From: Candidatus Levyibacteriota bacterium
GTDB taxonomy: Bacteria > Patescibacteriota > Microgenomatia > Levybacterales > UBA12049
DNA: 64,000 nucleotides
Direction of reading: 5' to 3'
NCBI GenBank assembly: GCA_027334565.1
Contig: DAHWUP010000001.1
Span: 158,726 to 222,725, forward strand
A program made the translations under genes and the position numbers. Shown in pieces: positions 30,232 to 51,975 of this stretch (positions within the stretch are counted from its first letter, which is position 1; each line of letters begins with the position of its first letter). Under the pieces are notes generated by a model. It was not told where the DNA came from and did no database searches. It worked only from the letters and a program-made list of their open reading frames with translations.

Positions 30232-31413
30232 TTAGGCGATTATTTTGTTGATTACGCCTGCTCCGACCGTTTTTCCGCCCTCTCTCACCGCAAATCTAAG
30301 TCCTTCTTCCAAGGCAACGGGCGTGATAAGTTTGACGGTCATCTTAGTGTTATCTCCGGGCATTACCATCTCGACGCCCTGAGGCAAGGTGGATTCACCA
30401 GTAACATCGGTCGTACCGATAAAGAATTGCGGTCTGTATCCCGAGAAGAAAGGTGTGTGCCTACCCCCCTCCTCTTTGGTCAGAATATAAATTTCCGCCT
30501 CAAATTCTTTGTGTGGTGTGATTGAGCCCGGTTTTGCAATGACTTGACCTCTTTCCACATCGGTCTTCTCAACACCCCTAAGTAAGATTCCTACATTGTC
30601 GCCGGCCTGACCTTCTTCAAGGCTCTTTCTGAACATTTCTACGCCGGTAACCACCGACTGTTTGGTCGGTTTGATCCCGACAATTTCGACCGGGTCGTTA
30701 ACCTTGATTTTTCCTCTTGAAATTCTTCCCGTTACGACCGTCCCACGTCCTTTGATCGAAAAAACATCCTCGATCGGCATCAAGAAAGGTTTATCCAGGT
30801 CCCTGACCGGGGTCGGAATATAGGAATCGACCGCGTCCATCAGAGCTTCAATTTGTTTCTCGGCTTCAGGGTCGCCTTCCAGAGCCTTAAGAGCAGAACC
30901 CCTGATGATCGGCACTTCGTTTCCGGGATACTGATATTTTGTAAGAAGTTCTCTTACTTCCATTTCAACCAGGTCCAAAAGCTCCGGATCGGAAACCATA
31001 TCGCATTTGTTAAGGAAAACTACAATTGATGGTACCTGAACTTGGTGGGCAAGGAGTATGTGTTCTCTGGTTTGGGGCATGGGGCCGTCGGGAGCTGAAA
31101 CTACGAGGATAGCGCCGTCCATCTGGGCGGCTCCCGTAATCATGTTCTTAATGTAATCCGCATGGCCCGGTGCATCGATATGAGCATAATGTCTTTTGGC
31201 GGTTTCGTATTCGATGTGGGAAATATTAATAGTAACGCCCCTTGCTTTTTCTTCGGGGGCGTTATCGATGTCCTCGTATTTTTTGGCTTGTGCCATTCCC
31301 TTCTTGGCCAAAACGGTAGCAATAGCCGCCGTTAACGTGGTTTTACCATGGTCTACATGACCGATGGTACCGATATTTACATGTGGTTTATTTCGTACGT
31401 ATTTGTCTGCCAT
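30232..31413 (-). CDS. tuf: Elongation factor Tu
   Basis: [14 protein letters not shown]-like DAPGHADY, and NKCD motifs; 393 aa. Confidence 0.97.
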
Positions 31414-31489
31414 GTTTTATCAAAAAAAATAACCCCTCAAGGTTGAATTTAATATACAATACTTTTTAAAAACCGTCAAGAGGTAAAAT

Positions 31490-31831
31490 TTACTTTTCCG
31501 ATTTTAATTTTTCTTTTTCTCTTAAAGAAAGGATATTTATAACTTCGGATACCAAATATGCTAAAAAGGCATACACTAAAAGCGCAAAAAGAGTGGATAA
31601 TTCCAGAACGAATCCACTCTTTAATACTTGATTCGGAAAAATTCCTACAAATGGTGCCAATACCGGTTGGGTTGTATCGTAAACCCAAGCCACGAACGGG
31701 GCTTGCGTGTTTGCGCCGAATAGCTTTAAAACTATCCTTAGTAATAGTAAAAATTCTACGACTGAAAATACTACATCCGCAAGAAATGTCAACGGAAGAA
31801 ATTTATTCATGATAATTTGTGCGTTGTACAT
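31490..31831 (-). CDS. YggT family small membrane protein (the true start may be the internal Met at 31810)
   Basis: Two TM helices with a conserved Pro and aromatic pattern (FVAWVYDTTQPVLAPF). Confidence 0.5.
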   Translation of the reverse strand: MYNAQIIMNKFLPLTFLADVVFSVVEFLLLLRIVLKLFGANTQAPFVAWVYDTTQPVLAPFVGIFPNQVLKSGFVLELSTLFALLVYAFLAYLVSEVINILSLREKEKLKSEK

Positions 31832-31891
31832 CTACAACGGTCATAAACCCGGAAGTGTTACATATTTCGGTAGTTCTTAAAGCGGATTTTG

Positions 31892-32422
31892 TTATTTGAG
31901 TTGAAGATAATCCGAAATTCCGACCTTGATTGTCTTAAAAGCCAGATCCATATTCAAAATCTCCGTGGGTGGAAAATATTGATACTCCGAAACATCGTCC
32001 GAAACTTTAATTTCTCCCCGAGTGATTTTTGCAAAGACCGCTACGCACAAAATCGGAAAATCAATGTGCTGATATTCATAAGAGTCCGTATATACTCCGA
32101 CCAACCTATTTATCATTATTTCGACTCCCAACTCTTCTTTTATCTCCCGTATGACCGAGTGCTCAAAATTTTCTCCACCGTTTAAAAATCCACCCGGCCA
32201 ATCCCATTTATTCTTTTGAGGATCAAATTTTCTTTTTACCAATAATATTTCGCCTTTATCGTTTTCAATAACTACGGCATTACAGGGAACCGCGTTTTGA
32301 TAAAATTTAAAACCGCATTTTTGACAAATTAAAAGATTATCGGTTCGTTTTTTTAAAACTCCCGCACATTTAGGGCAAAATTTATAAACAGCCGCAGGAC
32401 TCATGTTAGTATGGTTTTTCAT
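31892..32422 (-). CDS. Nudix hydrolase with an N-terminal C4 zinc ribbon
   Basis: CPKC...CQKC followed by the Nudix box GGFLNGGENFEHSVIREIKEELGVE. Confidence 0.85.
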   Translation of the reverse strand: MKNHTNMSPAAVYKFCPKCAGVLKKRTDNLLICQKCGFKFYQNAVPCNAVVIENDKGEILLVKRKFDPQKNKWDWPGGFLNGGENFEHSVIREIKEELGVEIMINRLVGVYTDSYEYQHIDFPILCVAVFAKITRGEIKVSDDVSEYQYFPPTEILNMDLAFKTIKVGISDYLQLK

Positions 32423-32621
32423 CGGAGGTTTTCATTCCGCTTTTTATCGCATACAACAATTCTTCATCCGTCATCGTCTGCTCTTCATCGCCATGCATTT
32501 GACTGTAATGCTGTTTGACAATATCTTCCAATTTATAATTCGCGTCCCAGCTGGCCTGCGAGTCGTCTTCGTATTCGTAAAGAACTTGTCCGCACTTCGG
32601 ACAGGCAAAAGAATAATACAA
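32406..32621 (-). CDS. Small hypothetical protein with a CPKC motif and an acidic tail
   Basis: 71 aa; MYYSFACPKCGQVLYEYED...; overlaps the Nudix gene start by 17 nt. Confidence 0.4.
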   Translation of the reverse strand: MYYSFACPKCGQVLYEYEDDSQASWDANYKLEDIVKQHYSQMHGDEEQTMTDEELLYAIKSGMKTSDEKPY

Positions 32622-32657
32622 TTTACCTCACCTCCTTAAAAACTATACATATATTGT

Positions 32658-33314
32658 TTAAGCGTTTCTTTTTTCTATCCCCGAAATCTCTTGGATAAAA
32701 AAATCCACTCCGTCGCTTCTAAGCACGACGAATCCCGTATTCGCAATCGCCCCGGAGCTTAACTCTCTGAACGTCCCGACGCCCAAATGCACCAAAAGCG
32801 CACGCATAACGAATCCGTGACTTACTACCAAAACCGTTTTGTTCGGATAGGCTATTGCGATTTCCCGAAGTGCCGTAATAAATCTCCCCAAGGCCTCCTC
32901 GGCACTTTCCATATCCGGAAAAAGTTTCCATTTCCAGATTTTTTCCACAGGCATATTTTCGGGGTAATTAAAAATATTACCGATATCCAATTCCTCCCTA
33001 AGCTCTTTCTCGGTTTTTCCACCCAAATTTCCTTTACGGCGTTCTTCCAGAGCTTCTTTGGCAACAACAGCCATTTTTCGCTCCTTGGCCAAAATTTCCG
33101 CGGTATGTTTTGCACGGTTCAAATGCGAAGCAAAAATAGCGTCAAAATTGATATGGTTGAATTTAGAAGCCAGCGACTCAGCTTGTTTACGTCCGGTATC
33201 GGTAAGGTCCGAACCGAGTTTTGTTCGTTGCACCTCATGGAGCCAATTACCGAAATTTATATTCCCCTCAGACTCTCCATGTCTAACCAGATAAATCGTG
33301 CAAAGTTTATCCAT
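32658..33314 (-). CDS. Histidine phosphatase family protein (phosphoglycerate mutase-like)
   Basis: LVRHGESEGN RHG catalytic motif and a C-terminal SHG. Confidence 0.85.
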   Translation of the reverse strand: MDKLCTIYLVRHGESEGNINFGNWLHEVQRTKLGSDLTDTGRKQAESLASKFNHINFDAIFASHLNRAKHTAEILAKERKMAVVAKEALEERRKGNLGGKTEKELREELDIGNIFNYPENMPVEKIWKWKLFPDMESAEEALGRFITALREIAIAYPNKTVLVVSHGFVMRALLVHLGVGTFRELSSGAIANTGFVVLRSDGVDFFIQEISGIEKRNA

Positions 33315-33368
33315 TTAAACCATTATAACATTTGACATTTAGACAATTATCCTATAATATTGTAACCC

Positions 33369-33854
33369 GTGAGAAATTACGAAACACAACCGTTATCGTC
33401 GGACGAAGAAGCTTCGGTTTTAGCCGATTTGAATCAGGAAATAGTGAACGCAAAACTTCGAACCGATTGGGATCTGGGAAGCGATTCGGGTTCTTTATAT
33501 TTTTCAAGAGACACGCTTATCTTAACGCCCTTTGAGTTATCCAAACTTTTTAAGCTTCCCGAAAGTTTTTTTGTTTTACCCGAAGAAGCAAAAATACCGA
33601 GTATAACGGAAAATCCTATGCTCAGAAACAGGTTTAAACAATTGGTCGGTATCATGTGTTTTCTACAAAGAGTGATTCCCGACGTTTTTAGCAGGGACGA
33701 CTTCTCAAGAACTCGTCAGGGGATCTTTGAACAGGAATCGCCTTTACAACTTCTAAGCACCAGAGAGCCGGTTCAAGCATACACGATAATTAAAGAGCCG
33801 GCAAAATTTTGGGGATTCAGGGATACACAAATTCCGCGAAGATCTGTTTTCTAG
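33369..33854 (+). CDS. Hypothetical protein
   Basis: A 161-aa ORF with no recognised motif, co-directional with the downstream hypothetical gene. Confidence 0.4.
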   Translation: MRNYETQPLSSDEEASVLADLNQEIVNAKLRTDWDLGSDSGSLYFSRDTLILTPFELSKLFKLPESFFVLPEEAKIPSITENPMLRNRFKQLVGIMCFLQRVIPDVFSRDDFSRTRQGIFEQESPLQLLSTREPVQAYTIIKEPAKFWGFRDTQIPRRSVF

Positions 33855-33916
33855 GTCTTGTGAACGTAGGCTTTTCCCCATTGACAAAAAAAATTTTCTG
33901 CCGGACAATGAATTAA

Positions 33917-34513
33917 ATGTCAAGTAAGGAGTGCTTCAAGCTCCAATATTGCCCCACTGAACCGGAAGAAGGCAGTTTTATCATCTCCGGTCATGATAAC
34001 CCCCGCTATGTAAACATTCCTGCGGAGCTGATTCACGCAACCGGTGAATTGGGTAACAAAAGAGCTAAATTTATCGAAGACAGAGTTGGGAAAATTCTAC
34101 TTCATCGGACAAATGTCGTTGCCGACGTGACCCGAAACGGTTTTAATAGCGAAGAGGACGGTTTGGGACACGATCTCACTCTGACATTACGCGATAACTG
34201 CCCCGTTAGAACCGTTCATGTACAAGTTAAAGCCAGTAGACGAGAGGTCGTGAACTATAAACGGTGGATAAAGAAAAAATATTTCCCGGATGCCGAAGAC
34301 AACATTGAAGACCTCATTAAGGGTTGGCTAACGGAAAACAATCTCATTTTAATCAATGGCATTGAAACCAAATCGGCGGATGAAATCCTGACCGACAGCT
34401 TCTATCCTCAATTGCAAAGGGTCTTCAACCGGGGTGATATACCAAGATCACCGGGCCAGTTAATTCTATTTAATGACATTCCGGAAGCTAAATTGCTTTC
34501 TCCCGCAGCTTAG
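33917..34513 (+). CDS. Hypothetical protein, paralog of 35953..36420; possible Hjc/Mrr-like PD-(D/E)XK fold with QxK in place of ExK
   Basis: The shared block GHDLTLTLRDNCPVRTVHVQVKAS...NYKRWIKKK...NLILING...DEIL..F.PQL aligns with GRDIIILFKDELERDPVFIQVKSS...NKKTKKWLKRR...RIMLIIGNG..EEI..F.EQL in the other ORF. Confidence 0.5.
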   Translation: MSSKECFKLQYCPTEPEEGSFIISGHDNPRYVNIPAELIHATGELGNKRAKFIEDRVGKILLHRTNVVADVTRNGFNSEEDGLGHDLTLTLRDNCPVRTVHVQVKASRREVVNYKRWIKKKYFPDAEDNIEDLIKGWLTENNLILINGIETKSADEILTDSFYPQLQRVFNRGDIPRSPGQLILFNDIPEAKLLSPAA

Positions 34514-34943
34514 GCAAAAGTTGATTGATCCGATTTTTTATTTCTTCGAAAACTCCCTCGGTGAACTGTACTTTTTTAATTTCTTCCGATGAGGAATTAA
34601 AGGTGCTGTCTGTATCCTTAATATCCCATACTTCAAAATTCTCAGGTTTATATCCGAATTTTTCGGTGCAATAAGTATATACATCATTATCCATGAATAC
34701 GGTAAAATCCCCTTCTTCCAAAAGCGGCCTGGTGGTTTGGTCCCAAACCGGTTTTTCATACGGAATTAGGTGGTGATGTTGGATGATCCTTTGCGCATAC
34801 CAGCTCACCGGACCGCATTGATTCAACGAGGCTGCAACACCGCTTGATACCGCTTTGATGTTGGGGAGTTCTTTTGAGTTAAGATAAGCTTCCGCCAGAC
34901 GGCTCCTGAAGGTATTTCCCTTACAAATGAAGTGGATCGTCAT
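34488..34943 (-). CDS. Low-molecular-weight phosphotyrosine phosphatase / ArsC-like (LMWPc fold)
   Basis: CKGNTFRS P-loop (C-x5-R-S) at the N-terminus; 151 aa. Confidence 0.75.
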   Translation of the reverse strand: MTIHFICKGNTFRSRLAEAYLNSKELPNIKAVSSGVAASLNQCGPVSWYAQRIIQHHHLIPYEKPVWDQTTRPLLEEGDFTVFMDNDVYTYCTEKFGYKPENFEVWDIKDTDSTFNSSSEEIKKVQFTEGVFEEIKNRINQLLPKLREKAI

Positions 34944-34987
34944 ATTTTAATTATGAATTAGTTTGAAAAAGTTTTCAACCAAAATTT

Positions 34988-35281
34988 TCATTCTTGAGTG
35001 ATCCTGATCAGTTCCGTTCTTAAAGATCCGGGCAAGATCCCTTCGACATATTCAGACTTCCCCGGCATCAAAGATTTTGTTTCGCTTGTAGTTGGCCATG
35101 GGGGCGCAAACCGGGATTGCCTTACCATAATAAGCGACGGGCCATTATCTCCCTGGAAAACGACATGCTTTGGGCTTGTTTTTGCGATACCGCTTGGAAT
35201 ACCGATCGGCATCGGACCCATATCGACCCGGGTCCATTGATTCAAATTTCTTAATACTTCAATTCTAACCGGCATAAGCAT
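34988..35281 (-). CDS. Hypothetical protein (strand assignment uncertain; an 80-aa ORF overlaps on the + strand)
   Basis: A 97-aa ORF with no recognised motif. Confidence 0.25.
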   Translation of the reverse strand: MLMPVRIEVLRNLNQWTRVDMGPMPIGIPSGIAKTSPKHVVFQGDNGPSLIMVRQSRFAPPWPTTSETKSLMPGKSEYVEGILPGSLRTELIRITQE

Positions 35282-35337
35282 GGGGATTATACAACTTTTA
35301 TCATTACTTTTCCTTAGGGTACCGGCGGAAGCTTATC

Positions 35338-35874
35338 TTAACGTAATTTTTCTATTTCTAAAAGTATTTCTTTAAGAATCGGAATATCCACCAACATGTC
35401 TGCCGACTGAAAGAATTCATCCAGCTTAATTCTTACTTTTTTCTCGTATTCCAACGCCTGCAAAGCTCGTTCAAGTTTATCGACCTGCTTTACAAACCTT
35501 GCTTCCTTGCTTTTATTTTCGGAATACTCTTTAAACAAAGAATCATACACTTTACCTCCGATCAAACCGGTGATCTCTTCGACAGCTTTCGATTCGTTAA
35601 GCAATTTCTCCTCATATCCGGGCAAATAACCCTTTGCGTCAAATTTGATCAAATCTCCGACCTTTGCTTCACCGATGTCGTGCACCAAGGCCATTTTTAC
35701 ACATTTATTTGCATCGATGCCCGCTTTTTCGGCCAGGACCAAACTCATGACGGCGACCCTAAAGGAATGGTCCGCAACGCTTTCCGGGTCCGGTATATGA
35801 TGTTTTATCCAACCGGTTCTTTTAATCGATTTTAATTTACCGACCTCCTCTAAAAATTGAATAATGCCCATCAC
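35338..35874 (-). CDS. HD domain phosphohydrolase (YfbR-like 5'-deoxynucleotidase family)
   Basis: Metal ligands H...HD...D (VADHSFRV, LVHDIGE) in a 178-aa all-helical frame. Confidence 0.8.
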   Translation of the reverse strand: MMGIIQFLEEVGKLKSIKRTGWIKHHIPDPESVADHSFRVAVMSLVLAEKAGIDANKCVKMALVHDIGEAKVGDLIKFDAKGYLPGYEEKLLNESKAVEEITGLIGGKVYDSLFKEYSENKSKEARFVKQVDKLERALQALEYEKKVRIKLDEFFQSADMLVDIPILKEILLEIEKLR

Positions 35875-35952
35875 CTTTTAATTATAGCAAACAAATAATG
35901 TCTTATATTCCATCTTGACAGAACTATCAACTTATTTATAAATTAATATTAG

Positions 35953-36420
35953 ATGACGATAGAGGCCTCCGCCTTTAGCCCTGCCCTATCCAGAGCACTC
36001 GGTTTACCGGACGGGTCGCTTGCTCCCCCTGACCTTACCTCGGATGAAAAAGGAAGTTATTCGGAAATCAAAGTTGCGACAGCTTTAATGGATCATCCGG
36101 AAATTTCTAGGGTGACCATGACCGAACATTATAGTCCCGACGACATGCGCGGCCGCGACATAATAATTTTATTTAAGGATGAACTCGAAAGAGATCCTGT
36201 TTTCATTCAGGTAAAATCAAGTCATAATGGAGCGGATATCTACAATAAAAAAACCAAAAAATGGCTTAAGAGACGCGGTTTGAATATGACGACCGAAGAA
36301 TGGATGGCAATGAATAGAATTATGCTTATCATCGGAAACGGAAATACCCCCGAAGAAATCAGGGAAAGTTTCGATGAACAGTTGCATGCGATTACGTCAT
36401 TAGGTAAAACCAAACATTAA
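35953..36420 (+). CDS. Hypothetical protein, paralog of 33917..34513 (Hjc-like KGSYSE...RDIIILF...IQVKSS pattern)
   Basis: See the alignment under the paralog. KGSYSE/DIII/IQVKSS resemble Hjc KGSxFE/DIIA/IEVKS. Confidence 0.5.
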   Translation: MTIEASAFSPALSRALGLPDGSLAPPDLTSDEKGSYSEIKVATALMDHPEISRVTMTEHYSPDDMRGRDIIILFKDELERDPVFIQVKSSHNGADIYNKKTKKWLKRRGLNMTTEEWMAMNRIMLIIGNGNTPEEIRESFDEQLHAITSLGKTKH

Positions 36421-36458
36421 TCAGTCGCTACCGAAAAATTATGGTCCGGCCTTTTTGA

Positions 36459-37193
36459 TCAACTTGACCGCATTATTTTTTTTAATCTTGTCGATATTCG
36501 AACAAACTCGTCCGCCGAATCTTTTGGTTTCCAGCCGAACGGATTGGAAACATCATGCACTCTTCCCGGATTATCCGACACAGCATATATAACAGCAAAA
36601 TTTTCCGGAACTTTTTTTGCATTTAGTACCTTCTTTATTAAAGAAACGCAGTCGCCGTGCGATAACCAGGCTCCCCTTTCTTCCCTGGGACGATCATTAA
36701 GCGAAGGCGAAACGTTCCCGGGATTCACCCCGCCGAACCTGATCGCCACCACTTCCATATCGCTTTTGGCAAAATACCGCCCTAAATATTCCATAAAAAT
36801 CTTATCTGCGCCGTAAGGACTATCCGGAACGGGGGTATGGTCGGTCGAAAGAAACGGCTTTGTACCATAAAATGAATCCGCATGTATGGAGCTGGCAACG
36901 ATCGCTCTTTTTACTTTTGCTTCCCTCGCCGCTTTATATAAATTGACGGCCATTTGCGCGTTTTCGGGGTCGATATTTTCATTTTTTAGATTTTCGGTTT
37001 GGGAATTCCACGCAAGATGGATTACGGCAAAGTTATCCCTAAGCTTCGATATAAGTGTCTGATAATCAAGCACATCGATTCCGAGTTTTATATCGATCGG
37101 GGTAATTTCATAATCATCGTAAAGACCCTTTTTAAGGACTGTTCCGATCACTCCTTCCGAACCTGTAATGGCTATCTTTACCTTCATTGCCAA
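36459..37193 (-). CDS. NAD-dependent epimerase/dehydratase family (SDR) protein
   Basis: N-terminal ITGSEGVIG Rossmann motif and a YxxxK-like region (YGADK). Confidence 0.7.
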   Translation of the reverse strand: MAMKVKIAITGSEGVIGTVLKKGLYDDYEITPIDIKLGIDVLDYQTLISKLRDNFAVIHLAWNSQTENLKNENIDPENAQMAVNLYKAAREAKVKRAIVASSIHADSFYGTKPFLSTDHTPVPDSPYGADKIFMEYLGRYFAKSDMEVVAIRFGGVNPGNVSPSLNDRPREERGAWLSHGDCVSLIKKVLNAKKVPENFAVIYAVSDNPGRVHDVSNPFGWKPKDSADEFVRISTRLKKIMRSS

Positions 37194-37250
37194 AAATTAT
37201 AGCAGATTCCTTAAATGGAAGATTATAGAACACTCAAAAAATTTTTAAAC

Positions 37251-39350
37251 CTATTCAACTCTTCCGGTAAAAGTGGATTTTGCCAACATCTGTTGGACGA
37301 TACTTTGCGGAACTTCTTCGTAATGACTTGGTTCCATATAATATGACGCGCGTCCCTGAGACATCGAACGAATGGTGGTCGCATAGCCTGAGAGCTCAGC
37401 CAAGGGCACCATTGACAAAATTATGGTCGCCTTTCCCCGTTCTTCGGTCCCCATGATTTGAGCGCGTTTGGATGAAAGATCACCGATGATATCCCCCATA
37501 AATTCGCTCGGGGTGGTAACTTCAACCTTCATGATCGGTTCCAAAAGCTGTAGGTTTGCTTTTTTGCTCGCCGCCTGCAAGGCCTGTGACGCGGCGATTT
37601 TAAACGCAACGTCCGACGAATCAACTTCATGATAGGAACCGTCGTAAACGGTCACTTTCATATCGACCATAGGATACCCGAGGAGTATACCGTTTTCCAT
37701 TGTTTCCTTAACTCCCTTTTGAACCGAGATCACAAATTCGGCAGGAATTGCTCCTCCCTTGATAGCGTCGACGAATTCAAATCCTTCACCCCGCGGCTTT
37801 GGTTCAACTCTTAACCAACAATGACCGTACTGGCCGCGGCCTCCGGACTGGCGGATATATTTTCCTTCCCCCTCACCCATTACCTTAACGGTTTCTTTGT
37901 ATGCAACTTGCGGTGCGCCGACATTCGCCAAAACGCCGAATTCGCGTTTCATCCTGTCAACCATTACCTCAAGCTGTAGCTCTCCCATTCCCGAGATGAT
38001 GGTTTGATTGGTTTCGTGATTAACTTTGATGCTGAATGTAGGGTCTTCTTCGGAAAGACGTTTGAGCGCTAAGCCCAATTTTTCCTGATCGGCTTTGGTT
38101 TTAGGTTCGATCGCCAACGAAATGACCGGTTCCGGGAAAGAAATTTTTTCCAATATTATCGGCGCTTTTTCTTCGCATAGGGTATCTCCGGTTCCTGTAT
38201 CCTTAAGACCGACCAGCGCCACGATTTCACCCGCATAAGCTTCTTTTATCTCTTCCCTGTGGTTTGCATGCATCAATAAAATTCGGCCGACCCTTTCGGT
38301 TTGATTTTTGGTTGAATTGTAAATGTATGACCCCGCCAACACTTTTCCCGAATAGACCCGGTAGTAAGTTAGTTTACCGACGTGTGGATCTATTTGTATT
38401 TTGAAAGCCAATCCCGCAAACGGTTCGTCCGCCTCGGGTTTTCTAACCTCGGCCGCGCCTGTTTTAGGATTTTCTCCATGAACTTCACCAACGTCCAAAG
38501 GAGAAGGAAGATAGTCAACTACCGCATCCAATAAAGGTTGAACTCCTTTATTCCTTAGAGAGCTTCCGCAAAAAATCGGTACCAACTTATAAGCGATGAC
38601 CGCCTTTCTTAAGGCCGTTTTCAGCTCTTCGTCGCTGATGGTATCTCCGTTGAGATATTTCTCCGTCAACGTATCGTCGGTCTCGGCAATTTTTTCAACC
38701 AGTTTATGTCGATATTCCTCCGCCTGAGCTTTCATGTCCGCCGGAATTTCAACCACGTCGAATTTTGCACCCAGCTCATCGGAGCCCCAAACATAAGCCT
38801 TCATTTCCATCAACTGAACTATCCCTTTAAACGTACTTTCTGCTCCGATCGGAAGGGCCATGATCAAAGGATTTGCTCCAAGCCGGTCTTCGATGGTTTT
38901 AACCGTATGAAGGAAATCTGCGCCTAATTTATCCATCTTATTTACAAAACAAAGTCTTGGCACTTTATATTTATCGGCCTGTCGCCAGACGGTCTCCGAT
39001 TGCGACTGTACACCTTCTTCGGCGTCCAAAACAGTGATGCCGCCGTCCAAAACTCTTAAGGACCTTTCCACTTCTGCGGTAAAATCGACATGGCCCGGAG
39101 TATCGATGATGTTAATGCGGAAGCCTTTCCAGAACGCGGTGGTTGCGGCCGAAACAATCGTGATCCCTCTTTCTCTTTCCTGTTCCATCCAGTCCATCTG
39201 CGTATTTCCTTCATCGATATCGCCGATTTTATGGGTTTTTCCCGTATAAAAAAGTACCCGCTCGGTGGTGGTGGTTTTGCCCGCGTCGATATGGGCAATG
39301 ATGCCGATATTTCTTACCTTATCCAATGTTTTTAATCTATCCTCAGCCAT
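37251..39350 (-). CDS. fusA: Elongation factor G
   Basis: [17 protein letters not shown], and NKMD motifs; 699 aa. Confidence 0.97.
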
Positions 39351-47872: not shown

Positions 47873-49666
47873 ATGACGGCAAAACAAATCATTGATACTT
47901 ACATCAGTTTTTTCCAAAAGCGGGGGCATAGGCAAATCGGCAATTCGCCGCTTGTCCCTGAAAATGATCCAACCACTCTGTTTACCTCTTCCGGCATGCA
48001 GCCATTGATACCTTATCTTTTGGGCGAACCGCACCCGGCCGGGTCCAGGTTGGTGAACGCACAAAATTGTTTCAGGGCGGTGGACATTGAAGAAGTGGGA
48101 GACAACCGGCATTCGACATTTTTTCGGATGCTAGGCAACTGGAGTTTGGGAGACTATTTCAAAAGCCAAGAAATTCCCTGGCTTTTCGAACTGTTAACGG
48201 AAGGGTTCGGACTGCCTAAGGAAAAACTTTATGTCACGGTATTCAACGGATTCAAAAATATCGAAAGGGACAACGATTCTTACGGGATCTGGTCGGAACT
48301 CGTTTCCAAAGACAGAATTTTCTTCGCCGGGGTCGATAAAAATTGGTGGTCGAGATCGGGCATACCGGAAAATATGCCTGTCGGTGAAATCGGAGGACCG
48401 GACACGGAAGTTTATTACAGATTCGATGATGTTGAACATAAACCGCAATGCAAAGATAACCCGGTTGAATGCGAATGCGGAAAATTTTTGGAAATTGCCA
48501 ACTCCGTTTTCATACAATATCAAAAAACGGAACAGGGATTTATAGAACTGCCGCAGAAAAATGTAGATTTCGGTGGAGGCGTAGAAAGACTTCTGGCTGC
48601 TATTGAAGACAGGTCGGATATTTTCCAAACCTCTCTTTTTACTCCTATTATTAATAGTATAGAACAGGAAAGCGGTAAAGCTTACCTCAAAAATAAAAAA
48701 GAAATGCGTATCATTGCCGACCATTTGACCGCTGCTGTTTTTATAACCAATTCGGGTATCAAACCCTCCAACAAGGATCAGGGTTATATATTAAGAAGAT
48801 TATTGAGGCGCTCCTTTGACAATTTTTATCTGTTAAAAGGGGAAAATATCCGGGCTGTGGTTGAAAAAATCGTTGACCAATATATACCGACCGATGAGTA
48901 TCTCAAAGTAAATTTCGAAGAAATTGAATTAACTATTTTAGAAGAGGAACAGAATTACGGCCGCACGCTACAGAAAGCAAAAAGTTTTATCGAGAATAAA
49001 TACGAAGAGCGGTTAATCGACGGAGTTAAAAAAATTTCAGCCCAAGACGCGTTTATTCTTTATTCGACTCATGGATTGTCTCCCACACAAATTCGAAGCT
49101 TAGGATATGTTTTCGACGAACAGGAATTTGCCGATAAAATGGAAGATCACCAAAAACTGTCCCGTACCGGGGCACAACAAAAATTTAGAGGAGGTCTTGC
49201 CGATCACTCGGACTTAACCATAATGGGACATACCGCAACCCATCTTCTTCATCAAGCTTTAAGGAGTAAATTTGGTGAGCAGTTGCATCAAACCGGATCG
49301 AACATAACAAGTGAACGAATAAGATTTGATTTCAATTTTGACAGAATGTTAACGCCTGAAGAAATAAAGCAAATTGAAAATACGGTAAACGATAAAATCG
49401 GAGAAGACCTTCCGGTACATTTTGAAATAATGCCCTTGACAAAAGCCAAACAAATAGGAGCGATCGGCTTATTCGATGAAAAATACCAACAAGACGTTAA
49501 AGTATATTTTATCGGGCACCCCGGAGAAAAATTTTATTCGGTCGAGTTCTGCGGCGGACCTCATGTTAATTTTACAGGGCAGCTTAAAAAGTTTAAAATA
49601 ATAAAGGTGGAGAATATCGGCAAAGGACAGAAAAGAATTTACGCGAAAGTTAACGATCAGATATGA
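47873..49666 (+). CDS. alaS: Alanine--tRNA ligase, short form (catalytic, tRNA-recognition and editing domains; no C-Ala domain)
   Basis: N-terminal FF.KRGH...SS.L.PEND.TLLFT..GM motif and editing-site HTATHLLH plus CGGPHV; only 597 aa. An extended -10 element TGcTATAAT lies at 47845-47853. Confidence 0.85.
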   Translation: MTAKQIIDTYISFFQKRGHRQIGNSPLVPENDPTTLFTSSGMQPLIPYLLGEPHPAGSRLVNAQNCFRAVDIEEVGDNRHSTFFRMLGNWSLGDYFKSQEIPWLFELLTEGFGLPKEKLYVTVFNGFKNIERDNDSYGIWSELVSKDRIFFAGVDKNWWSRSGIPENMPVGEIGGPDTEVYYRFDDVEHKPQCKDNPVECECGKFLEIANSVFIQYQKTEQGFIELPQKNVDFGGGVERLLAAIEDRSDIFQTSLFTPIINSIEQESGKAYLKNKKEMRIIADHLTAAVFITNSGIKPSNKDQGYILRRLLRRSFDNFYLLKGENIRAVVEKIVDQYIPTDEYLKVNFEEIELTILEEEQNYGRTLQKAKSFIENKYEERLIDGVKKISAQDAFILYSTHGLSPTQIRSLGYVFDEQEFADKMEDHQKLSRTGAQQKFRGGLADHSDLTIMGHTATHLLHQALRSKFGEQLHQTGSNITSERIRFDFNFDRMLTPEEIKQIENTVNDKIGEDLPVHFEIMPLTKAKQIGAIGLFDEKYQQDVKVYFIGHPGEKFYSVEFCGGPHVNFTGQLKKFKIIKVENIGKGQKRIYAKVNDQI

Positions 49667-51975
49667 AAATACCTTTGGGATTTTTAGAAAAAAAAGAAAA
49701 AGTTGAATATTATCTGGCGCTTGTCCTTCAAAACGAAAAAGTAAATTCGGTTATTTTCGAAAAACAAGGACAAGCTTTAAAATATATCTCGAGCGACGAG
49801 GAATATTTTAAAAATACTATTGAAGATGCCACGGAAATTGAATTTTTGGATATTCTGGATAAGGTCATCACTACCGCCGAAACCGCGCTTCCCGAAAGCA
49901 TCGAAACACACAAAACATTGTTCGGGCTAAAAGATAACTGGATAGAAAACGATAAGATCAAAAAGGAATATTTGGAAAAGTTGAAAAAAGCCGGCGACGA
50001 ACTGGCTCTTGAACCGATCGGTTTTTTGGCTTTTTCCGAAAGCCTGATAAACCTTATTCAAAAAGAGGAAGGAGCTCCGTTAACCTCGGTCCTGGTCAAC
50101 GTGGGCAAGAAACATATCACTGTCTATTGGATCAAGGGAGGAAAAATCCTTGAAACGAAAACATCTGAAATCCATGATTCTCCTTCATTTACAACCGATG
50201 CTTTAATGAAGCATTTCCAAAGCGGGGGAAGTTTACCGTCCAAGATAATCATCTTTAATTCCGACGAGGAGGAACTAACACAAGAATTTATCGGTCACCA
50301 GTGGAGCAAAAGCTTATCATTTTTACATATTCCGCAAGTCGAAAGCTTACCACAAGACGCCGCTGCCAAAGCGATGTTATTGGGTGCCGCTACCCAAATG
50401 GGCACTCAACTTGTCTATGATTACTCAAAAAACCTTGAAACCGAAGTCGAAGAAGAGATGACCCACGATGAAGAACAAAAGAGTGAAGAGACTCAAAAAG
50501 GAATGCCCGAAGAGAGGAAGACAGAGGAAACCGAAGGGTTTGAAGAACCGGCCATAACAAAACCCGTTGGAGAAGTGACCGAGGCGACGGCCGAATTCTT
50601 CGGTTTCGTTGAGGGCAAAGATGTCACCGAGACCGCCCCATCAAAAATTTCGCTTGACAAAGACGTGCCTAGTCAAATAACCGAAGAGAGTATCGAGGAG
50701 ATTCCCGACGAAATAAAAACGGAGGAAGAAAAAAAAATCCCCCTTCCGATAAACATAGGTTTCGTGTCCGAAAAAATAAAAACCGTACTACCTAAGGCTT
50801 TTAATCTGGTCGATAAGATCAAAATCAATAGACAATTTTTGTCATCTCTTAAATCCGGGAATAAATTATTATTGATTATTCCCTTAATACTTGTTTTATT
50901 AGTCTTTTGGATCTTATATGTCTACCTTTTCCAAACCAGCGTCCAAATCAACGTCTACGTAAATCCCAAACAGGAACAAAAAACTACTCCGGTAACTTTT
51001 TCTAATGCAACAGATATTACCAACAAGACCATAGCTTTTGAGACCGTTTCGGTGACGGAAACAGGATCGGTATCGACCAACACGACCGGTAAAAAAAATG
51101 TTGGTCAGGCGGCGAAAGGAACTGTAACGATTTTTAACAACAGCAATTCGGTCATGGATTTTCCCCAAGGCACTACGATTACCTCATCAAACAATCTGAA
51201 TTACACCACCGACAAAGAAGTCACCGTTGCATCGGCGTCGGGTGACGTTTTTTCCGGCACAACGCCCGGTACCGCCGGTGTTACGGTAACCGCGGCGGAT
51301 ATCGGACAGGACTACAATCTTCCATCCGGAACGAAATTCTCTATCGGTACAAATCCTGATGTTGCGGCTAAAAATGACAGCGCCTTTTCCGGAGGAAGTT
51401 CAAAATCGGTAGTTGTGGTATCTTCCGATGACTTGAACAAGCTTCTTACCGACCTTCCGAAAAGCCTGGAACAAAAAGCCAAACAAGATCTTCAGGCAAA
51501 ATCGACCCCGGATAGAACGGTGATCGGTCAATTCATTTCGGAAACAGTTTCAAATAAAGATTTTAGTAACAAAGAAGGCGACCAGGTTTCAACAGTCGGT
51601 TTAAACGGTACCGTGACTTTCGATGCGATCTCCTATTTAAATAGCGACATGGATAATCTGGCCAATTCGTTATTCGCCTCTGATGAGAGGATAATGTCAA
51701 ATGATTTAACCGTTAACGCTGCCAACATAAAACAGCAAGCCAATCAAGACATAACTGCAGAAATTACTATTAACGCCGGGCTGATGCCAAAAATCGATAT
51801 TGATAGCTTGAGAAAACAAATCGCGGGTTTTTCAAAAACAAAAGCCACTAATACTCTTGATAACCTTGTGCAGGCACAGCGGGTACAATTCAACTTCAAC
51901 CCCGGCATTCCCCTTTTGCCGCAAAATCTTCCGGAAGACTATCGAAAGATATTCATTAACATTACGACAAAGTAA
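49663..51975 (+). CDS. Large hypothetical bitopic membrane protein: cytoplasmic N-terminal domain, acidic linker, one TM helix, extracellular Ser/Thr/Asn/Gly-rich domain
   Basis: 770 aa. Its start overlaps the alaS stop (ATGA). The TM helix LLLIIPLILVLLVFWILYVYLF is near residue 400. The C-terminal half is rich in T, S, N, G and V. Confidence 0.6.
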   Translation: MKIPLGFLEKKEKVEYYLALVLQNEKVNSVIFEKQGQALKYISSDEEYFKNTIEDATEIEFLDILDKVITTAETALPESIETHKTLFGLKDNWIENDKIKKEYLEKLKKAGDELALEPIGFLAFSESLINLIQKEEGAPLTSVLVNVGKKHITVYWIKGGKILETKTSEIHDSPSFTTDALMKHFQSGGSLPSKIIIFNSDEEELTQEFIGHQWSKSLSFLHIPQVESLPQDAAAKAMLLGAATQMGTQLVYDYSKNLETEVEEEMTHDEEQKSEETQKGMPEERKTEETEGFEEPAITKPVGEVTEATAEFFGFVEGKDVTETAPSKISLDKDVPSQITEESIEEIPDEIKTEEEKKIPLPINIGFVSEKIKTVLPKAFNLVDKIKINRQFLSSLKSGNKLLLIIPLILVLLVFWILYVYLFQTSVQINVYVNPKQEQKTTPVTFSNATDITNKTIAFETVSVTETGSVSTNTTGKKNVGQAAKGTVTIFNNSNSVMDFPQGTTITSSNNLNYTTDKEVTVASASGDVFSGTTPGTAGVTVTAADIGQDYNLPSGTKFSIGTNPDVAAKNDSAFSGGSSKSVVVVSSDDLNKLLTDLPKSLEQKAKQDLQAKSTPDRTVIGQFISETVSNKDFSNKEGDQVSTVGLNGTVTFDAISYLNSDMDNLANSLFASDERIMSNDLTVNAANIKQQANQDITAEITINAGLMPKIDIDSLRKQIAGFSKTKATNTLDNLVQAQRVQFNFNPGIPLLPQNLPEDYRKIFINITTK

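Follow-up and report, generated by a model that had tools for sequence, protein, structure and literature searches.

Do two short genes that stand antisense in the fusA–tuf gap of a Candidatus Levyibacteriota bacterium encode working nucleases, and what would such enzymes do there? In both proteins, called A and B here, a Gln occupies the place of the catalytic Glu in a PD-(D/E)XK-like signature. An earlier note on this DNA suggested that they may be inactivated or altered-specificity nuclease-fold proteins, from a DNA/RNA-binding or defence-related family duplicated within one island. The locus was studied in a window of 64,000 nt, which is the whole stretch of DNA that was analysed (assembly GCA_027334565.1, contig DAHWUP010000001.1). 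The answer that we hold to be reasonably probable is that A and B are active stand-alone nucleases, similar to the SPARDA effector DREN, in a housekeeping setting, and that they are possibly clamp-recruited and hetero-oligomeric.

Both genes were found on the forward strand by an ORF scan and in the source contig's own gene annotation. Gene A (33917..34513) encodes 198 aa and gene B (35953..36420) encodes 155 aa. They are antisense to the operon and lie between the genes for EF-Tu (tuf, 30232..31413) and EF-G (fusA, 37251..39350), both on the reverse strand, in a frame that spans 30232..39350. Translation and Pfam/NCBIfam matches identified the operon-strand genes of the gap, all on the reverse strand: YGGT (31490..31831), NUDIX (31892..32422), His_Phos_1 (32658..33314), and an SDR/epimerase-like gene (36459..37193). 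Between A and B are an LMW phosphatase/ArsC-like gene (34488..34943) and an HD_3/YfbR-like hydrolase gene (35338..35874), also on the reverse strand and in agreement with the HD hydrolase and the phosphatase previously described there. Gene A and the convergent LMW-phosphatase gene share 26 nt at the 3' end of A.

Directly upstream of A, a called gene of 161 aa (33369..33854, forward strand) is present, which is not a family member. It has no match in Pfam, NCBIfam, or PHROGs and no likeness to the upstream genes of other loci. Its TTGACA pattern match is at 33332..33360 on the forward strand. Consensus scanning gave further forward-strand promoter-like sites for A at 33881..33909 (TTGACA, 17 nt, GACAAT; with 7 nt between it and the ATG) and for B at 35915..35944 (TTGACA, 18 nt, TAAATT; with 8 nt between it and the ATG), both of which are consensus pattern matches only and not evidence of function. 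Inspection of the sequence found no Shine-Dalgarno sequence before the start codon of A, and the transcript of A is possibly leaderless.

The position of these genes is strictly conserved. Twelve distinct loci from Levyibacteriota/Patescibacteria are 10 kb or longer; in 11 of them a family gene adjoins fusA within the fusA–tuf gap, and tuf is also within range in nine of those 11. In these loci the family gene is always antisense, with its 3' end toward fusA. Overall, fusA or tuf is adjacent to a family gene in 17 distinct related loci, and the GC content of the A/B region is native. A and B are apparently vertically inherited chromosomal genes at a fixed position, each with its own promoter. 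Such a placement and mode of inheritance point to a housekeeping role and not to a mobile defence role. The strict antisense location between fusA and tuf can also be used as a marker for the lineage. In six other loci, a conserved membrane protein of approximately 125 aa is encoded beside the family gene; it is absent from this window.

The paralogy of the two proteins is clear. Pairwise BLASTP aligned them with 23% identity over 131 aa (E=3e-7), and their Smith-Waterman score of 89 compares with 29.4 +/- 4.8 in shuffled controls (z=12.4), none of 2000 shuffles reaching 89. Among the 86 ORFs of at least 100 aa in the window, each is the best non-self match of the other. The motifs that had been quoted for the pair are all present in A and B, respectively, namely GHDLTLTLRD and GRDIIILFKD, VHVQVKAS and VFIQVKSS, LILING and IMLIIG, and DEILTDSFYPQL and EEIRESFDEQL, together with KGSYSE in B. 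A recent duplication does not agree with the wider comparison: A ranks only 109th among the BLAST matches of B, whose nearest relatives (P0082, P0053, and P0068, 41-53% identical) are found in other genomes. Homologues of A are 47-59% identical to it. Judged by their sequences, A and B are old paralogues from anciently separated subfamilies, a long, tailed A-type and a short, tail-less B-type. Five loci have two family copies (the window, L015, L016, L009, and L028). One copy of each type is present in the window, L015, and L016, and the copies of L009 and L028 are untyped.

Both proteins belong to an uncurated family of stand-alone PD-(D/E)XK phosphodiesterases that are small and consist of a single domain. 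A matches the family HMM with E=8e-45, and B was recovered at 2.7e-46 in an exhaustive profile search. The family comprises 281 clusters at 50% identity and is confined to Levyibacteriota/Patescibacteria as far as sampled. By far the commonest Pfam match is DUF4365, which was obtained for 6 of 8 members and then for 57 of 149 at E<=1 (best E=3e-7). Protein A itself scores 13.4 bits against DUF4365 (PF14280; E=0.08), below the gathering threshold of 24.3 bits, sampled family members score 15.5-22.4 bits, and B has no match to this Pfam entry. These profile scores make the family a distant sister branch of DUF4365/DREN, and A and B are not Pfam members. One member, P0074, has a weak match to the dsRNA-binding domain (dsrm) at its C-terminus, with an E-value of 0.013 that is below threshold.

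AlphaFold2 models support the nuclease fold that the earlier note had proposed (pTM 0.75 for A; pLDDT 89.2 and pTM 0.84 for B). Their topology is alpha-beta-beta-beta-alpha-(alpha)-beta-alpha; the conserved Glu lies in alpha1, beta2 opens with the Asp, and beta3 carries Q-x-K. DSSP assigned helices and strands in A to H43-63, E68-73, E87-91, E99-105, H108-122, (H131-140), E143-147, and H154-170, and in B to H30-45, E51-56, E70-74, E83-88, H91-107, (H114-120), E123-127, and H133-154. In B, E38 is within H30-45, D69 is just before E70-74, and both Q86 and K88 are within E83-88. The top Foldseek lists of both models in both libraries consist mostly of PD-(D/E)XK enzymes, including TnsA, Ecl18kI, HinP1I, SwaI, DdmD, HamA, BspD6I, BamHI, AddAB, VRR-NUC, Cas4, and endonuclease I. 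TnsA is in the top lists of both models, at ranks 5 and 9, with E-values (0.33 and 0.61) that are not significant. The order of core strands and helices is that of the PD-(D/E)XK fold, and the family conserves both the acidic residue with which beta2 begins and the (D/E/Q)-x-K of beta3. Fold and chemistry are well supported for both proteins, and their biological role is a proposal.

Family conservation, secondary-structure placement, and the DREN-like pattern locate a predicted catalytic constellation in A at 34076..34231 on the forward strand. It consists of E54 in helix alpha1 (34076-8), G84-H-D86 at the start of beta2 (34166-74), and Q103-V-K105 in beta3 (34223-31), followed by A106-S107. 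Alignment and DSSP place the counterpart of B at 36064..36216, also on the forward strand, with E38 in alpha1 (36064-6), G67-R-D69 before the beta2 strand (36151-9), and Q86-V-K88 in beta3 (36208-16), followed by S89-S90. All four catalytic positions are kept in more than 90% of 156 family sequences (E in 141, D in 152, and K in 151), and the position of Q103 is occupied by Q in 123 and by E in 31, with no other residue. At least 12 switches between Q and E were counted across the tree, with Q inferred at the root, compared to 28.5 when the tips were shuffled.

In DREN/DUF4365, the working catalytic residues are D41, Q60, and K62, of which D41 and Q60 coordinate Mg2+; G39 and S63 contact the substrate. 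A D41A/Q60A/K62A mutant or, in TmuRE, a Q62A/K64A mutant serves as a dead control. The Gln of the family is native and not a sign of inactivation, because it is the working residue in DREN as well as the majority and inferred ancestral state of the family, and is swapped only with Glu. By analogy, Glu(alpha1)...Gly-x-Asp(beta2)...Gln/Glu-x-Lys-Ser(beta3) would constitute a complete, native, metal-dependent nuclease site. As QxK is the normal working site of the nearest relative, A and B are probably active enzymes and not dead ones. The nuclease fold and the paralogy of the earlier reading were borne out, and its suggestion of inactivation was not.

Long-form members of the family, including A, have disordered C-terminal tails with beta-clamp-binding-like motifs. 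In A, the tail covers residues 174-198 (34436..34510, forward strand; pLDDT below 50) and contains the pentapeptide Q181-L-I-L-F185 (34457..34471, forward strand), which resembles the clamp-binding consensus QL(S/D)LF (PMC9690074). The motif Q[LM]xLF is found in 12 of 159 family tails, compared to 0.086 expected from shuffles, and is 178-fold enriched relative to the other proteins encoded at these loci. A second motif, Q[ILV][FW]P, is present in 35 tails (0.27 expected) and has 38 occurrences in all, with none in the locus background. B has no tail and hence no clamp-binding-like peptide. The cognate DnaN is not encoded within the window.

A mechanism can be proposed on this basis. Both A and B are predicted to cleave nucleic acids. 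If they work like DREN and TnsA, Mg2+ would be held by Asp and Gln, and Lys would activate or stabilise at the scissile phosphate. The beta sliding clamp may recruit long-form members such as A to DNA via their QLxLF-like tail motifs. Like the clamp-tethered NucS/EndoMS, they would then be endonucleases coupled to replication or repair. In genomes that have both types, A and the tail-less B may form a hetero-oligomer together. This possibility is considered because isolated DREN is an inactive monomer and works only as a tetramer of two catalytic and two structural subunits. A more far-reaching proposal, which we regard as speculative and rather unlikely to hold in its entirety, joins all these elements. 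Levyibacteriota and related CPR bacteria would possess a core, vertically inherited, clamp-tethered DREN-like endonuclease, split into catalytic, tailed and structural, tail-less subunits as an A2B2 analogue of the DREN tetramer, for replication-coupled repair or junction processing. To the Argonaute-associated defence effector it would be a counterpart or ancestor with a housekeeping role, and its frozen antisense position in the str operon may couple its expression inversely to the transcription of translation genes.

Other explanations were weighed against active housekeeping nucleases. We consider it very improbable that catalysis was lost through the change from Glu to Gln and that A and B now only bind DNA or RNA. 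In favour of such a loss, A and B depart from the classical (D/E)xK motif with their QxK, and isolated DREN domains are inactive as monomers; yet QxK works in DREN and TmuRE, Gln ligates Mg2+, and the site coincides with that of TnsA. Moreover, conservation at four sites and at least 12 switches restricted to Q and E are the opposite of what relaxed selection would leave at a dead site. Quite unlikely, too, is a defence or toxin effector, that is, an indiscriminate nuclease that is inactive until triggered in abortive infection or a toxin-antitoxin system, with a neighbouring gene as sensor or antidote. Defence genes are typically patchy and mobile, whereas the family gene has native GC and, in many lineages, keeps its fixed position within a cluster of core translation genes. 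The nearest characterised relative, DREN, is a defence effector with collateral degradation of DNA and RNA, and it is found in other genetic contexts too, according to the SPARDA authors (10.1101/2023.06.08.544223). Small unannotated neighbours, ORF 33369..33854 here and the membrane protein in the six other loci, could also fit such a system; however, the latter is missing from the window and the former is not conserved. None of 8 members matched any of 5027 PADLOC models at E<=1, no Argonaute or APAZ Pfam families were present among the neighbours in the window and nine annotated related loci, and no methyltransferase was among the A/B neighbours. The defence-related family within one island that the earlier note had suggested is not supported, and the genes are a lineage-conserved part of the fusA–tuf gap and not a mobile insertion.

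A nuclease of nucleotide salvage or RNA turnover, which feeds the nucleotide enzymes of the fusA–tuf gap or processes translation-linked RNA, is unlikely but deserves some weight. The host lineage is generally held to be without de novo nucleotide synthesis. In every locus the neighbours are nucleotide hydrolases or phosphatases (NUDIX, HD_3/YfbR-like 5'-deoxynucleotidase, His_Phos_1, LMW phosphatase, HIT, Maf, MazG, phosphoribosyltransferase), DREN cuts RNA as well as DNA, and P0074 has its dsrm match. However, the nuclease genes run antisense to those of the nucleotide enzymes and have promoter-like sites of their own, so the two groups are not co-transcribed, and guilt by association is weak where gene order is frozen. 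The dsrm match is below threshold and limited to one member, and the conserved tail motifs are left unexplained.

If A and B are indeed active housekeeping nucleases, Gln is no longer a sign of a crippled nuclease fold. DREN, whose study has so far centred on its part as a suicide effector in short-Argonaute defence, would gain a relative in ultrasmall CPR bacteria that is chromosomal and stand-alone. This would bear on the origin of defence effectors and on DNA processing in reduced genomes whose repair toolkits are sparse. Two concrete predictions that can be tested cheaply come from the clamp-motif tails and from the recurring pair of long and short genes.

Among known systems, TnsA of Tn7 is larger than A and B and has an additional C-terminal domain, and the Tn7 partner genes and transposon ends are absent at the A/B locus. 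Its E/D/Q-x-K active-site arrangement coincides with the DREN site, as the SPARDA authors reported (10.1101/2023.06.08.544223). Mrr_cat (PF04471) was rejected as an identity, since its matches are weak and limited to 4 of 149 members (best E=0.0017), with A and B not among them. The likeness to Hjc that had been pointed out stands at the level of topology and not of sequence. Hjc is a small single-domain PD-(D/E)XK enzyme in which an [RK]GSxxE motif in a helix is followed, at similar spacings, by strands that carry DII and (E/Q)xKS, and the DREN model 'superimposes well onto' it (10.1101/2023.06.08.544223). However, Hjc is archaeal and has Glu, not Gln, at this position. It was not among the top 50 PDB Foldseek hits of either model, and hhalign of the family profile with Sso Hjc (sequence validated as identical to 1HH1) gave a probability of 0.4% (E=0.16, 18 columns), so that no sequence-level relationship was found. 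NucS/EndoMS offers a precedent from the literature for a clamp-tethered nuclease, comparable to A with QLILF in its disordered tail, but it has two domains, and no sequence relationship to the family was detected. DREN is closest: its G39/D41/Q60/K62/S63 correspond to G84-H-D86...Q103-V-K105-A-S in A and G67-R-D69...Q86-V-K88-S-S in B, and it cuts ssDNA, dsDNA, ssRNA, and hybrids. Whereas DREN is the SPARDA effector, fused to APAZ and adjacent to a short Argonaute, A and B are stand-alone, single-domain proteins in a chromosomal, syntenic, housekeeping-like setting, and their family has extra conserved N-terminal peptides, the family-specific motifs NG and SFxPQL, and, in the long forms, C-terminal tail motifs.

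Protein A (33917..34513, plus strand, 198 aa) and protein B (35953..36420, plus strand, 155 aa) are both called as genes in the annotation of the source contig, and every motif quoted in the earlier note was found in them. They share an alignable core with 23% identity across 131 residues (BLASTP, E=3e-7); the Smith-Waterman score of 89 lies 12.4 SD over shuffles, with 0 of 2000 shuffles as high. Among the 86 ORFs of at least 100 aa in the window, the two are mutual best non-self matches. An LMW phosphatase/ArsC-like gene (34488..34943) and an HD_3/YfbR-like gene (35338..35874), both on the minus strand, lie between them, as described previously. The observation on the two ORFs is confirmed, and its overall interpretation is partly supported. 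A is not a recent duplicate of B: it ranks 109th among the BLAST matches of B, whose closest kin (P0082, P0053, and P0068, at 41-53% identity) come from other genomes and are short and tail-less.

A word-indexed search returned B alone with B as the query and seven proteins with A. An exhaustive HMM search, using an eight-sequence profile against representatives of 50%-identity clusters, matched 281 representatives at E<=1e-3 and 118 at E<=1e-10; B scored 2.7e-46. All family members are unnamed and lack a precomputed Pfam domain, and neither A nor B is matched by NCBIfam, PHROGs, or PADLOC. DUF4365 (PF14280), the effector nuclease (DREN) of SPARDA short-Argonaute systems, is the one Pfam family to recur; it matched six of eight and later 57 of 149 members (best E 3e-7), with Mrr_cat as the runner-up (4/149). 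A (13.4 bits) and sampled members (15-22 bits) fall below the cutoff of 24.3 bits, and B has no match in the Pfam search, so the family is, judging by profile scores, a distant, uncurated sister of DUF4365 outside its formal membership.

Replacement of the catalytic Glu by Gln had been read as possible inactivation. In 156 sequences aligned to the profile (A numbering), Glu occupies position 54 in 141, Asp position 86 in 152, and Lys position 105 in 151. Position 103 holds Gln (123 sequences) or Glu (31), with no other residue. Parsimony on a neighbour-joining tree of the core places Gln at the root and requires at least 12 Gln/Glu changes (mean of 28.5 with shuffled tips); Gln thus appears to be the ancestral state, and Glu an acceptable alternative that was gained repeatedly. 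[quoted passage not shown] The D41A/Q60A/K62A triple mutant of DREN is dead (10.1101/2023.06.08.544223), and a Q62A/K64A mutant served as the inactive control of TmuRE (PMC10810196). Both A (G84-H-D86...Q103-V-K105-A-S) and B (G67-R-D69...Q86-V-K88-S-S) reproduce this pattern. Since QxK is a working DREN site, inactivation is not supported, and known enzymology accounts for the Gln-for-Glu oddity.

The minus strand of the window carries rpoB-rpoC-rpsL-rpsG-fusA-gap-tuf-rpsJ and then the ribosomal protein operons; A and B occupy the plus strand within the fusA-tuf gap. A family gene adjoins fusA inside this gap in 11 of 12 distinct loci of at least 10 kb (tuf in range in 9 of the 11), the sole exception being L012, where it is located elsewhere; with shorter contigs added, fusA or tuf is adjacent to a family gene in 17 distinct loci. 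In related loci, the gap-located gene always lies opposite the operon strand, its 3' end toward fusA. The operon-strand genes of the gap vary within one guild (NUDIX, His_Phos_1, HD_3, LMW phosphatase, HIT, Maf, MazG, GNAT, and phosphoribosyltransferase). A role in salvage or RNA turnover, tied to the nucleotide hydrolases nearby, is conceivable for the nuclease, although we regard this as unlikely. A triggered toxin or defence effector, a role recalling that of DREN in SPARDA, is more improbable still. The proposed defence island is not supported, given the fixed synteny, a gap GC content matching that of the window, and the lack of PADLOC matches for A or B; the gene is inherited vertically in a conserved position and does not belong to a mobile or defence island.

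The fusA-tuf junction of the str operon is normally tight. In this CPR lineage it is widened by 3-9 kb (window 31414..37250; L001, L004, L011, L013, L015, and L016), and the operon strand there is filled with a varying set of phosphatase or nucleotide 'house-cleaning' genes. An unannotated gap of ~400 nt (34944..35337) between the LMW phosphatase and HD genes contains a 97-aa operon-strand ORF that was not called as a gene (34988..35281); the gap has no Rfam match, and its RNA folding is not unusual (z=+1.4). In six loci, a conserved, hydrophobic, apparently multi-pass membrane protein of ~125 aa is encoded on the minus strand and transcribed divergently from the nuclease gene (L001 9545-9934, L011 7548-7931, L013 7557-7934, L014 3025-3402, L004 9238-9612, and L015 7534-7923); it is 43-84% identical over five copies compared, has no Pfam family, and is absent from the window. 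In the long contig L013 (11270..13387), fusA is broken up into ORFs of 176, 427, and 82 aa, and the epimerase-like gene is truncated, which suggests assembly frameshift errors or pseudogenisation. Elsewhere in the window, a 770-aa protein with a weak Baseplate_J-like match (49663..51975, plus strand; E=5e-6) is encoded between alanyl-tRNA synthetase and a pyrimidine-nucleoside-phosphorylase-like gene, oddly for a housekeeping region.

The B-type genes of P0082, P0053, and P0068 also lie within the fusA-tuf gap. A second, long A-type copy accompanies the B-type gene in L015 and L016, in the latter in tandem 3 nt apart. Five loci carry two family copies, L009 and L028 included; the B-type gene is missing from most loci having an A-type gene. 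Where a record names its organism, this is a Candidatus Levyibacteriota or 'Patescibacteria group' MAG, apart from one 1.3-kb Nanoarchaeota-binned contig. This contig (L009, 1278 bp, labelled Nanoarchaeota archaeon) bears two tandem family genes, and either is a mis-binned CPR contig or extends the family to DPANN archaea.

By consensus matching, A, B, and a called 161-aa gene directly upstream of A (33369..33854, plus strand) each have an upstream TTGACA separated by 17-18 nt from a -10-like hexamer, which ends 7-8 nt short of the start codon; a Shine-Dalgarno sequence is absent. Such a layout is consistent with a separate promoter for each gene, possibly a leaderless one. Pfam, NCBIfam, and PHROGs gave no match for the upstream ORF, and it lacks a counterpart among the related loci examined.

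The C-terminal tails of long-form members vary in length and sequence, and that of A (residues 174-198) is predicted to be disordered (pLDDT <50). They share short conserved peptides ([ES]-[PA]-S-G-Q-[ML]-x-L-F-P and [IV]-Q-[ILV]-[FW]-P), and some members end in QLTL(P/L)F(S). The strict form Q[LM]xLF was found in 12 of 159 tails (0.086 in shuffled tails), at 178x the density in other proteins from the same loci, and Q[ILV][FW]P in 35 tails (0.27 expected), with 38 occurrences in all and none in the locus background. A carries Q181-L-I-L-F185 (34457..34471, plus strand). The bacterial clamp-binding consensus is QL(S/D)LF, typically C-terminal (PMC9690074), and the PD-(D/E)XK mismatch endonuclease EndoMS/NucS relies on such a motif at its C-terminus (PMC6159521); from these short motifs we propose putative clamp recruitment of the long forms. 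Both subfamilies share a conserved N-terminal peptide, M-x-E-A-[LP]-x-[FI]-x-P, which precedes the nuclease core (e.g. MTEALRIAPG and MTIEASAFSP; window 33917..34030 and 35953..36040), modelled with low to moderate confidence. In other samples, P0074 (263 aa) and P0130 (241 aa) have C-terminal extensions resembling dsRNA-binding domains (P0074 against dsrm, E=0.013, below threshold; P0130 by eye only), a hint that RNA or A-form duplexes could be substrates for some members.

We propose that A and B are catalytically active, metal-dependent phosphodiesterases whose site is of the DREN/TnsA type. On its own, DREN is monomeric and inactive; activity requires a D2 tetramer, with two subunits that bind and cleave the substrate and two structural ones (PMC12205087). 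Oligomerisation is therefore likely to be the control point for A and B too. The recurring pair suggests a possible A-type/B-type hetero-oligomer in genomes having both, which the A tail would bring to clamp-loaded DNA. The main interest now lies in the family itself, a sizeable and unnamed group of stand-alone DREN-like nucleases that is restricted, as far as sampled, to CPR bacteria and has a strikingly fixed antisense fusA-tuf position, recurring long/short pairing, and clamp-motif-like tails. The suggested likeness to Hjc is undetectable at the sequence level (hhalign of the family profile against Sso Hjc, a sequence identical to 1HH1: probability 0.4%, 18 columns), but is reasonable as a likeness of fold: the DREN model superimposes on Hjc, and the DREN active site coincides with that of TnsA (10.1101/2023.06.08.544223).
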